Source: an uncultured Acidobacteriaceae bacterium (GTDB lineage: Bacteria; Acidobacteriota; Terriglobia; Bryobacterales; Bryobacteraceae). Taken from it: a stretch of DNA of 64,000 nt. The DNA is taken from contig CAVZTP010000003.1 in assembly GCA_963778345.1 (NCBI GenBank), forward strand, positions 41,408 to 105,407, in the 5' to 3' direction. The position numbers and the translations under genes are program-made. The notes below the pieces were generated by a model. It saw only the letters and a program-made list of their open reading frames with translations, did not search any database and had not been told where the DNA came from. How positions within the stretch are numbered: the first letter of the stretch is position 1; the number at the start of each line of letters is the position of its first letter. This document shows, one piece after another, positions 10,624 to 17,096 of the stretch.

Positions 10624-11841
10624 GTGTCATTTGAATTCTCAGATTTACTGGCTGCAGTAGGTGGGTCGGCGGCGGCGTTCCGCTCTATTACACAATTACA
10701 GCCCGTGGGTGGCGTGGGGGATAAGGTCTTTCCCGTCACGTTCGCAGGGGGTGTCTATGCAAGAGAAAAGCGCCGCCTCGACGGCGCTGATGTTGATTGC
10801 GTGCTCATCGATTCGGTGCAGTCGCAAAGCAACAGGGCAGAGGAAGCGCTCATGCGTGCAATTGAGAGGGGCCAACTCTCTTTGCCGCTCATCGAAGTGG
10901 ATTTCACTTCGGCGAACGAAAAGCTGCGGAGCCCGTTGCCGAACCTTACCAGTCTTGAAGTGCCTCACAGACTCGCTGATGCAATCCTGCGCGACAGCCA
11001 GTTAGAAGATGGAACCCGATTTTCAAAATCTGCGTACGCAAAACAATGGAGCCGTTCGAATGTCTGGAACGCCAGTGCCGTTTATGAACTGTGCCCGACG
11101 GCCTTGGTGTTTGGCATGTGGGGCTCTCCCGAGAAGCCCGGCGGTTTGGGCGCCAAATTCGAGCGTGCCTATGTTTCGGAGATCGTGGCAGTCGATGTGG
11201 TCGGGAACAACGGAGCGCCAACCGACCGGGAAGGCCGGAACGACCTCACCCAAAAGCGAGCAGGATTCCGAATCGATCCACTCGGGTCAAGTAAAAGCGT
11301 CGCTCTGAAGCAACGAGACGACGGGGGCTTTGAAGTCGGAAGTGGAAAACTAAGGCCCTCCGAGTTAAATCACGGCAACATTCTGTTTGAGTCTTCGAAC
11401 ACAGGGATTCGGTTCCGTTACGCGGAACAAACAACCGTGGTCTCACTAGGAGCGCTGCGGAAACTGCGCTTTCCCGTAAACGGTCGCACCGACTCCAGCA
11501 CCGACGACGCAGCTCGGGCAGTTTTGGCCGCTATGGCCCTGTGCGCCGGTGTCTTGTCGGCTGAGACAGGAACGAGTTTGCGTTCACGCTGCCAATTGTG
11601 GCCGGTCGCCGACCGCGAATGGGAGTTGCTTGAAAAACCCGGGCAGGATGCTCGGAGATTCAGCTTGCAGGGACAGCGAGCAATCGCCTTGTTGAACGAG
11701 GCCGTCACCCATGCCGAAGGTGCGGGATTGAAATGGATGAAGCACAAGCTGGTCTTGAAACCTACGCCTGAACTGGTTGAACTAGTGCGACAGAGCCAGG
11801 AAAACGCCGCGAAGGAGAAGGGTGAAGGAGAGGCGCAATGA
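10624..11841 (+). CDS. csb1: type I-G/I-U Cas7 (Csb1, GSU0053 family)
   Basis: 405-aa intact ORF. It carries LQPVGGVGDKVFPVTFAGGVY, PTALVFGMWGSPEK, GAKFERAYVSEIVA, FRIDPLG and NHGNILF, which are characteristic of Csb1/Cas7u. It is the first gene of the cas operon. Confidence 0.85.
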   Translation: MSFEFSDLLAAVGGSAAAFRSITQLQPVGGVGDKVFPVTFAGGVYAREKRRLDGADVDCVLIDSVQSQSNRAEEALMRAIERGQLSLPLIEVDFTSANEKLRSPLPNLTSLEVPHRLADAILRDSQLEDGTRFSKSAYAKQWSRSNVWNASAVYELCPTALVFGMWGSPEKPGGLGAKFERAYVSEIVAVDVVGNNGAPTDREGRNDLTQKRAGFRIDPLGSSKSVALKQRDDGGFEVGSGKLRPSELNHGNILFESSNTGIRFRYAEQTTVVSLGALRKLRFPVNGRTDSSTDDAARAVLAAMALCAGVLSAETGTSLRSRCQLWPVADREWELLEKPGQDARRFSLQGQRAIALLNEAVTHAEGAGLKWMKHKLVLKPTPELVELVRQSQENAAKEKGEGEAQ

Positions 11842-13387
11842 CGGTCCTGGGCATTCGATATTTGCGAGGGTACTCGGTATCTAGGGATGCGGCGAAGGAC
11901 TGTCCAGAGTGGCCGCCGCATCCTGGCCGTATATTCATGGCGCTCGCGGCGGCGCATTTCGAGACCGGGGAGGACGAGGCCGAACGTCGCGCACTGGAGT
12001 GGCTTGAGCAGGAGAGCGCCCCTTCCATTGCGGCCAGTGGCGCGAATGAGAGATCGACTGTCACGACTTACGCCCCCGTAAACGACAAATCTGGCGGTAT
12101 CACTGGGCGGAGCCGACAGCCGCGTAGTTTTTCAACGGTCAGGCCCGAACGTGACGAAGTGTTTCTGATCTGGCAGGGCGACGCTGAGCAAAAAACACAA
12201 AGCGCGCTCGATCGGATTTGCCGTAGGGTAACACGAATTGGGCATTCCTCTTCATTGGTGCAGATGTGGGTGGCGAGTGGGACTGAAACGCCAGCGGCGA
12301 ATTGGGTGCCGGTCGATTCTCTGGTTCGCGATCGCATGCGTGTACCCGAGGCAGGGACTATCGCGTATTTGGAGCGCTCCTTTGCGAAGCGGGAGGCGCA
12401 GCAATACACGGTATTGCTGGATGCGATCGCGTCTGCAAAGGGAAGGGAAAAGAATCGGCTCAACAAAGAGCTAGACCAGTCTTTTCCGTTGGGCGCTCCG
12501 GGACCCACTCCGCCTCAACTGACGAAATGGCAGGGGTATGCCCCTGCCGGACGGCTGTCCGGCATAGAACCCGCGGTTCGCCGCGGGCCGTTCGATTCGC
12601 AGCTTATCGTTTTCGCGAAGGATGAAGGGCGCGCCTGGGCCTAGAGACCACGGTGCAACTACGGGTGCGTTGCGGAACGCTGCGATGAAGGCATCGGGAG
12701 AACAGCCGCCGGAGTGGTTGACTGGACATCAGGCAGATGGAACTCCAACGCTGCGCCCGCACGTAGCATTTTTTCCGTTGCCCTTCGTCGATGCGCGCCA
12801 CGCTGACGGACACGTTATGGGGCTAGCGATGGCGATTCCGCATGACCTTTCAGAAGAAGAACTTAGGAGAACTATAAGGCCCCCTGCTTTTCAAGGACAG
12901 CGGCGAAGAGCGAGTCCTTCGCTTGTGGCGTGATCGCACCAAGCAGCCGGGGATTGTGTCCAACAGAGTGGGAATGGCTTCTGCGCCGGGAAACGCGTCC
13001 GCGCCCGCCGGTTACGTTGCGTGCTGAGACATGGATCCAGGCGAGTAAGGTTTGGGCGAGCGTCACTCCCGTCGTGTTGCATCATCATCCCAAGCGCAAT
13101 CGCGAACGCGATGTTCAGCGTATTGTGATGGAGGCGTTCGAGTCAGCCCTGCTACCCTCACCTGAAGGTATAGAAATTTGCTCCGTGTCTCCGTTAACGG
13201 GCGTGGGGCATGCGCGCTCGATCCCGCATTCGATGAGGGGGGTAACTCACTTAGCCGGTATCAGACGCATGTGATCGCTAGGTTTGCGGCTCCGCTGGAA
13301 GGGCCAGTATTGGTTGGGCGCGGGCGATTTCGGGGCTATGGTTTGTTCCGGCCGTGGCGAGGAAACAATGAACGGTCTCAACCCTGA
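11838..13387 (+). pseudogene. csb2: type I-G/I-U Csb2 (Cas5-Cas6 fusion, GSU0054 family), at least 3 frame changes
   Basis: The N-terminal CPEWPPHPGRIFMALAAAH is in ORF 11838..12644. HVAFFPLPFVDARHADGHVMGLAMAIP is in ORF 12622..12933. WASVTPVVLHHHPK is in ORF 12930..13274. The C-terminal HVIARFAAPLEGPVLVGRGRFRGYGLFRPW is in ORF 13178..13387. A protein-like stretch LLFKDSGEERVLRLW in a further frame near 12880-12950 suggests a fourth change. Confidence 0.8.
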
Positions 13388-16149: not shown

Positions 16150-16172
16150 GCGGTCACAAACACAGGTGCTGG

Positions 16173-17096
16173 ATGAGTAAAGCAATAACACTGACGGCGT
16201 TGGATGGTGCGAACCCGCTCGCATTTCTTGCGGCTGTTGGGACATTGCGGCTGGCCCAGCTCGCGAACGACAATATCGTTCGCATGCGCTGGGAACGGCG
16301 CGGCGCATGGCACCCCTGTATTGAAGGCGCAGGTGACACCGAAGAAGATTTTTGCGAGCGGATATTTGCGGCGCCGTACGTGCCGATAAGAGCCATATCG
16401 CGGCTCGGGAAAAATATTACTGTCGCTCCGGAGGTATTCGCGGAATTCGTCGATCTCGCCATAGAGACAGTTTCGATGAAGGACAGGCGTGCAGCCGATT
16501 ACGCTGCCGCGTTCGGAAGCGAAGTGCGCGAAAACGATAAAAAAGGCCAGATTGAGCGCACGGATTTCTGTTTCATCACGGGTTCCGGGCACCAGCATTT
16601 CATCGGGACCATGGAGGCTCTGAGCGAAAGGGTCACGCTGCAGCACGTCCGCGATGCCTTATTTGCCGGTTGGCGCCGGGACAAAGGCTTTTCGATGAGG
16701 TGGGATCCTGCGAGATGCCGCGGAGTACGCGTTGCGCTGGAGCGATCCAGGGCCGGAGGGTGCATCTGCCGTGTGGGGTGCGAACCGGTTGGCGATCGAA
16801 GCGTTGCCGCTGTTTCCGACCAACCGTTGAACGCGGTTTACAGACAACTGGCTTTCGGCGCGAGAAGAAAACTTGGCCGCAAGTCCACTTGGCCCATTTG
16901 GACGGACTGGATAACTGTCGATTCCGTTCGCTCGCTTCTGTCTCTAAGGGAATTGCTCGTTTCGGATGAAGAATTCAGCAGAGACGAGCTCGTATCACGT
17001 GGCATTGGAGAACTCTACCGCTCGCAGCGGGTTCGAATCGGGCAAGGAGCAAATTTCAAGGTGAGCTTTGCGGCCCGCGCGCGCGATTTTGACTAA
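16173..17096 (+). CDS. small Cas8-like candidate large subunit (Cas8g2/Csb3-like by position), possibly frame-disrupted
   Basis: It lies between cas3 and cas2 and is translationally coupled (TAATG) to cas2. The N-terminus is [30 protein letters not shown]. Between ~16705 and ~16860 another frame gives a more protein-like [35 protein letters not shown] have no firm family match from memory. Confidence 0.4.

Follow-up and report, generated by a model that had tools for sequence, protein, structure and literature searches.

A type I-G CRISPR-Cas locus of an uncultured Bryobacteraceae bacterium whose effector genes are broken as written, probably by a low-quality sequence patch

The CRISPR-Cas systems of type I-G (formerly I-U) are recognised by a set of signature families, namely Cas7g, Csb2, a Cas3g with a C-terminal HD nuclease domain, a Cas4g/Cas1g fusion, Cas2 and an array of repeats of 35 nucleotides (nt), and in one variant of the type a Cas3-extension protein (family NF049934) replaces Cas8g2. 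All the signature families of this variant are found in a locus of an uncultured bacterium of the Bryobacteraceae (assembly GCA_963778345.1, contig CAVZTP010000003.1), within a stretch of 64,000 nt that is referred to here as the window and whose positions provide all coordinates given below; judged by its gene families, the segment from 10.6 to 20 kb is a complete type I-G locus. What sets it apart from its I-G relatives is that csb2, cas3 and the gene of the Cas3-extension protein are, as written, broken around 25 times. The explanation favoured here, to which a probability of roughly 0.78 is assigned on the grounds of sequence comparison, is that these breaks come from a local assembly or consensus patch of low quality that lies over an ordinary, unbroken locus of the I-G variant.

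A comparison with orthologous loci had been proposed in the initial annotation of the window, and three such loci do carry the genes in question uninterrupted. Two of them come from metagenome-assembled genomes (MAGs) of Bryobacteraceae (L002, with a csb2 of 509 amino acids (aa) and a cas3 of 944 aa, and L003, contig DASZPB010000076, with 515 and 937 aa, respectively), while the third (L006, a metagenome contig of the Joint Genome Institute) is the closest relative of the locus that was found, with protein identities to the window of 90% for Cas4/1, 85% for Cas2, 75.7% for the extension protein and 65% for the C-terminal half of Cas3. The nearest available orthologues stand at 57% (Cas3) and 76% (extension protein). 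The gene order cas7-csb2-cas3-Cas3-extension-cas2-cas4/cas1-array is shared by the window and the three loci. Cas8g2 (TIGR04106) has no match among the open reading frames (ORFs) of the locus that were scanned, and it is likewise missing from the other members of this variant; the large-subunit position beside cas3 is occupied by the NF049934 gene, the same arrangement as in L002, L003 and L006. As an observation apart, the cas7 of L003 (10001-11001) lies in two overlapping ORFs of 170 and 184 aa, a further case of a MAG with a frameshifted cas gene.

The lesions were called by a frameshift-aware protein-to-DNA dynamic-programming alignment against the uninterrupted orthologues of L003, L002 and L006, whose model separates, in the cas patch, only +1 from +2 shifts, so that indel sizes there are resolved no further. 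With the orthologues as queries, the tblastn matches of the window csb2 and cas3 are spread across all three forward frames. The alignment places frame changes at 12630, 12659, 12877, 12935 and 13227 in csb2, and at 13818, 14411, 14451, 14476, 14991, 15040, 15078, 15226, 15512, 15522, 15607, 15783 and 16138 in cas3 (12 to 13 changes). The initial annotation had counted at least three in the former and about eight in the latter, which was right in kind and too low in number, and it had put the two in-frame stops of cas3 exactly where they are: TAG at 13949-13951, 4 codons past the DEAH box, stands in place of a Phe that all of 120 homologues share, and TGA at 15720-15722 comes just after the HD motif. 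The frame switch that it had suspected between ~16705 and ~16860, in what it called a Cas8-like ORF, is real as well. This is the extension gene, with four to five frame changes, three of which are +1 shifts (16713, 16828 and 16886); because these sum to +3 (that is, one codon), the ORF stays open over 316 aa in spite of being out of frame from 16713 to 16886, and at a fourth shift (17070) the frame is lost again.

Altogether, about 25 lesions fall in 12630-17090, one every 186 nt on average, and under uniform placement of 25 lesions over 10624-19191 the probability of finding all of them inside that interval is about 8e-8. No larger deletions or insertion sequences are present. In the same kind of alignment, no frameshift events appear in cas7 (against L002, whose orthologue is 63.8% identical), in cas4/cas1 (against L003 and L006) or in cas2 (against L006), and the array of nine repeats is clean, all of which agrees with the initial description of these genes as uninterrupted and of the repeats as identical.

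Does this distribution follow the borders of genes? The patch begins only after the first 790 nt of csb2, continues through an ORF that is still open and ends in the final codons of the extension gene, which makes it a physical segment and not a set of genes. Neither are the lesions gene-specific, since lesions of the same kind are present in six unrelated genes of the window, with at least 11 frameshifts and one in-frame stop in total (Table 1). These were located by Pfam scans of neighbouring ORFs and by comparison with L005 (contig HuN_forest_Scaff3117217 of the European Nucleotide Archive), a sequence of ~90% nt identity to the window that serves as comparator for the DUF6259 region. In hypF, for instance, positions 1-69, 78-132 and 126-241 of the HypF_C_2 profile are found in three separate ORFs. 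The DUF6259 orthologue on L005 is uninterrupted (715 aa), and the repaired window protein is 91.5% identical to it, with a ratio of nonsynonymous to synonymous substitution rates (dN/dS) of 0.084 and values of 0.035-0.097 for the uninterrupted neighbours; the adjacent genes for a 1171-aa outer-membrane protein and a GH42 protein (5.7 kb together) have no frameshifts. Two other ways of mapping frameshifts were set aside: a frame plot of GC content at third codon positions was too noisy, and a 3-periodic Markov/Viterbi gene finder was too weak, as the entire cas region came out as non-coding, although the frame changes of hypF were flagged. The contig holds several bad patches (at ~1.08, 22.3-22.4, 26.27 and 45.2-48.7 kb), of which that in the cas genes is the densest. 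One lesion type thus recurs in unrelated genes and ignores gene borders, as an error patch would have it. The damage is then not peculiar to the interference module, as had been claimed; the contrast between this module and its pristine neighbours is real, but what it reflects is patchy sequence quality, with further bad patches elsewhere.

Among the alternatives, the one that survives best is a genuine and recent pseudogenisation of csb2, cas3 and the extension gene, with cas7 and the adaptation genes kept by selection or for lack of time; interference would then be abolished and the array would be at most a fossil. We regard this as unlikely, even though the lesions are there in the deposited sequence, densest in the effector genes, and CRISPR interference genes are frequently lost. 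The clean first 790 nt of csb2 and the lesions inside an open ORF defy a logic based on genes, and the same syndrome in the genes for HypF, HypE, the LacI-family regulator, the SSF transporter, the DUF6259 protein and the nucleotidyltransferase would require an indel-dominated, insertion-rich process that also strikes hyp and sugar-utilisation genes while leaving the protein sequences otherwise unchanged. Nor does the window offer a self-targeting spacer that would select for the loss of interference: this was considered as a selective reason and rejected, since, with up to 6 mismatches allowed, none of the spacers has a match elsewhere in the window.

The condition of the proteins after repair also bears on pseudogenisation. 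Repaired Csb2 has 513 aa, covers positions 1-491 of the 492 of TIGR02165 with 269.9 bits and is 59.6% identical to that of L003, while as written it comes in at least three fragments of 148, 49 and 36 bits. Repaired Cas3g, with 922 aa, covers positions 1-850 of the 854 of TIGR02621 with 675.6 bits, where the best single fragment as written reaches 147.5 bits (cut-off 400), and it scores above the uninterrupted Cas3g of another contig, L004, that is described below. For the extension protein, repair brings a rise from 159 to 224 bits against NF049934 and from 48% to 58.8% in identity to L003. Moreover, the overlaps of translational coupling reappear exactly as in the orthologues: the repaired cas3 ends in ...QTQVLDE and a stop, with an 8-nt overlap (ATGAGTAA) with the ATG of the extension gene, as in L006, and three T at 17087-17090 give the extension protein the C-terminus RPARAI-stop, identical to that of L003 and L006.

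Aligned with 120 homologues, repaired Cas3 deviates at 7 of the 187 columns with a conservation of at least 97%; three of these seven are at the site of a frameshift or stop, and two more were judged to be near a junction. Functional homologues deviate at 1.5 such columns on average, with a maximum of 11. The usual ratio of indels to substitutions in bacteria is roughly 1:10, by which the ~12 indels of cas3 would be accompanied by ~18 replacements at those columns. Over the whole patch, 25 lesions predict neutral substitutions on the order of at least 100, but the repaired proteins keep almost all their conserved residues and score as full-length members of their families, which argues against pseudogenisation. 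Neither the loss of conserved residues nor the raised dN/dS that are expected of evolutionary pseudogenes is observed, as judged from Cas3 for the former and from the DUF6259 gene for the latter.

The spectrum of the changes points in the same direction. The frame-breaking indels relative to L005 are all single-base, insertions equal or exceed deletions in number, so that there is no deletion bias, and in about half of the insertions the added base is unlike either neighbour. As for the stops, TAG at 13949 is two base changes away from the invariant Phe codon and TAA at 46350 is two bases off the GAT of L005, while TGA at 15720 most likely needs two base changes too, since 101 of the 120 homologues have Ala in its column and a single change could suffice only from the rare Ser or Gly variants. 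The deletion bias, variable sizes and slippage contexts of a natural indel spectrum are not observed. Small indels, of 1 nt wherever they could be sized, without deletion bias, larger deletions or insertion sequences, are hard to reconcile with pseudogenes. Homopolymer error was tried as the sole cause and rejected, since only some of the lesion sites adjoin runs of at least 5 bases.

Independent sequence is available on both sides of the patch, in two contigs built by Logan from run ERR11594400 (a run for which no match was found in the literature). One of them, L001, corresponds to window 10221-12565 at 100% identity and ends 65 nt before the first lesion. The other, L004, corresponds to window 17073-18307, with an identical Cas2 protein, and the sole difference is a run of three T where the window has four at 17087-17090. 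The patch coincides, therefore, with the gap between the end of L001 (12565) and the start of the L004 match (17073), and at the only lesion that an independent assembly covers, that assembly has the unbroken version.

Upstream of its match, L004 (1-7277) has a different cassette, with an uninterrupted 866-aa cas3g, cas8g2, cas7g and csb2, in front of a cas2-cas4/cas1 that is 100% identical to that of the window. The junction is inside the last 6 codons of the window extension gene, the left flank (window 9638-9768) is 82% similar, and the first 31-mer of L004 has as its last base the first mismatch to the window from 9638 onward, as is characteristic of a branch in the assembly graph. This join suggests either a swap of effector cassettes on a common adaptation module or a chimeric contig. 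A cassette of this kind on an identical adaptation module implies that the effector cassette is strain-variable in that community. For pseudogenisation, this provides two points in favour: the window cassette could be redundant beside a rival I-G cassette with an uninterrupted cas3 in a related sample, and the csb2 of L004 is likewise frameshifted. It also allows a more specific proposal, quite improbable in our estimation, in which the lesions are real and the replacement of the effector cassette is under way on a re-used adaptation module, so that in one soil community the identical cas2-cas4/cas1 would be joined either to the cassette of the window, which would be decaying by an unusual process rich in indels, or to the canonical cas3-cas8g2-cas7-csb2 of L004. 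If this were true, the adaptation module and the array would outlive successive interference modules and be re-used by them.

Several observations weigh against an error patch and have to be set beside the evidence in its favour. For 12566-17072 there is no independent sequence, unbroken or broken, in the collections searched: two homology searches of a collection of 5.8 billion proteins, set up to rank near-identical fragments at the top, returned, over the patch, only the gene calls of the source contig itself, and exact-protein look-ups for the patch and for genes around it gave no match for the extension ORF, the Cas3 N-terminal ORF, cas4/cas1, the fragment P0134, hypD, the hypF fragment and a SIS-domain protein. 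Lesions are ~50 times as dense in the patch as in the rest of the window, and this needs a local cause that is possibly biological, such as relaxed selection on a cassette under replacement. Most lesions lie outside long homopolymers, unlike the commonest error mode of long reads. Finally, the csb2 of L004 is split into two frames at 5107-5121, beside a run of six C (GGGCCCCCCGTC), through either a true slippage mutation or a homopolymer error in that assembly; cas lesions of genuine origin may thus be in circulation in this community.

With these points considered, we infer a technical origin for the lesions, and the low quality of the patch could be explained as follows. The window cassette would have been present at low depth or been hard to resolve, since it is strain-variable and an alternative cassette sits on the same flanks; built from few or noisy reads, the patch would then have received, in the deposited contig of 297 kb, an error-rich consensus with ~0.5% of small-indel and miscall errors. 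The true genes would be unbroken and the system would work as an ordinary I-G: Csb2 would process the precursor CRISPR RNA (pre-crRNA), Cas7 and the large-subunit-like extension protein would form the surveillance complex, Cas3g would unwind and cut the target, and Cas4/Cas1-Cas2 would acquire spacers. The initial annotation had left the choice between a recently inactivated effector and a localised assembly error; the assembly error fits much better, and the inactivated effector is poorly supported. Its further idea of a system that cannot interfere and still acquires spacers or serves regulatory roles finds no positive support, and the crRNA parts that it regarded as retained would not work, as Csb2, the subunit for crRNA processing, is also broken as written.

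Could the patch be, instead of an erroneous copy of one locus, a consensus into which at least two diverged strain alleles were collapsed, in which voting column by column produced a mosaic with spurious indels and stops while each real allele is unbroken? In a related sample the locus varies between strains, the Logan contigs break at 12565 and 18307, and the point where the first 31-mer of L004 ends is typical of branches in an assembly graph. However, the identity of the DUF6259 segment to L005 is uniform (~88-94%), without alternating blocks, and the protein collection holds no second allele of the cas patch, so that this possibility appears very improbable; in any event, it is a sub-type of the explanation by artefact and not a biological rival. 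As for functional recoding by programmed ribosomal frameshifting and stop read-through, which has in its favour only that the repaired frames are well conserved, its chances are practically negligible, as it would need ~25 sites with no common slippery motif or context, shifts of both +1 and -1 and two different stop codons, in proteins that L002, L003 and L006 encode in single frames.

Table 1. Features of the type I-G locus and genes with lesions of the same kind elsewhere in the window
Feature	Position	Strand	Description
cas7g/csb1	10624-11841	+	uninterrupted 405-aa ORF; TIGR02570 69.1 bits (cut-off 38), PF09617 161.6 bits
csb2 (Cas5-Cas6 fusion, TIGR02165)	11838-13387	+	5 frame changes; initial 790 nt lesion-free
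cas3g (helicase, C-terminal HD nuclease; TIGR02621)	13368-16180	+	12-13 frame changes and 2 in-frame stops
Cas3-extension family gene (NF049934)	16146-17096 as written	+	open 316-aa ORF; true gene probably 16173-17090
cas2	17096-17386	+	uninterrupted, 96 aa; TIGR01573 36.2 bits
cas4g/cas1g fusion	17413-19191	+	uninterrupted, 592 aa; NF049935 750.9 bits (cut-off 560)
CRISPR array	19374-19981	+	9 identical 35-nt repeats, 8 spacers of 36-38 nt
Lesion patch	12630-17090	no strand	~25 frame-breaking lesions; out of register with gene borders
Nucleotidyltransferase gene	1083-1092	+	one frameshift (~1085); profile positions 5-69 and 73-238 in different frames
hypF	22266-22456	-	2 frameshifts near 3' end (near 22280 and 22430); three frames
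hypE	26273-26274	-	one frameshift; AIRS positions 3-75 in one ORF, 75-111 plus AIRS_C in another
DUF6259 gene	45232-47066	-	frameshifts at 45232, 45911, 46260, 46936 and 47066; in-frame stop TAA at 46350
LacI-family regulator gene	~48069	-	one frameshift
SSF transporter gene	~48638	-	one frameshift

The surroundings of the locus show further features. Upstream of cas7, at 10380-10490 and in reverse orientation, there is a mini-array that consists of a repeat variant (GCTTCAATGAGGCCGCGATCCGGTGGATCGCGGAAAT), whose stem is compensatorily changed with respect to the main repeat, a 36-nt spacer with no match in the window, and a degenerate second repeat that retains only GCTTCAAT; this might be a regulatory element similar to a crRNA. 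Tandem heptamers, (AGGAGAC)n and variants, are found at 9089-9160 and 20792-20877, on both sides of a CRISPR-Cas island of ~11.7 kb whose boundaries they might mark. Directly upstream of the locus are a terminase-large-subunit-like ORF (7793-9100; Terminase_6N, E=4e-12) with a strong GC skew, a 23S-rRNA-intervening-sequence protein (9094-9516) and, on the reverse strand, a Uma2-family endonuclease (9833-10354), three genes that may be the remnant of a mobile element. Farther away, window 34700-45050 (~10.3 kb) is absent from L005, where the gene of the NiFe-hydrogenase small subunit is directly followed by the DUF6259 locus, and the strains are thus polymorphic for the insertion or deletion of this segment.

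At face value, the locus would be classed as dead for interference and competent for adaptation, a category that has been tied to regulation, to priming-only systems and to domestication. If the lesions were real, it would offer a rare glimpse of an effector cassette in selective decay next to a common adaptation module. For the time being, the apparent pseudogenes of this genome (cas3, csb2, hypF, hypE and the sugar-utilisation set) call for caution, and should not be given a biological reading before the reads are checked.

Two groups of known cases can be compared with the locus. The naturally interference-deficient type I loci, with cas3 missing or pseudogenised and co-opted by transposons or for regulation, resemble it at face value in having adaptation genes and an array beside a dead nuclease-helicase; nevertheless, those loci keep a working crRNA-guided complex and usually lose cas3 cleanly, whereas in the window Csb2 is broken too, and no partner genes for transposition or regulation were seen in the stretches scanned. 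The other group is formed by the many multi-lesion bacterial "pseudogenes" that are artefacts set by platform, assembler and coverage (Cooley and Wright 2024, PMC11017572). The window differs from these spurious pseudogenes in that most of its sites are not in homopolymers and in that the error density of the patch (~0.5%) greatly exceeds that elsewhere in the contig, but it is like them in the presence of frameshifts and internal stops in otherwise conserved, unrelated genes, in their clustering in patches and in the dominance of single-base indels.

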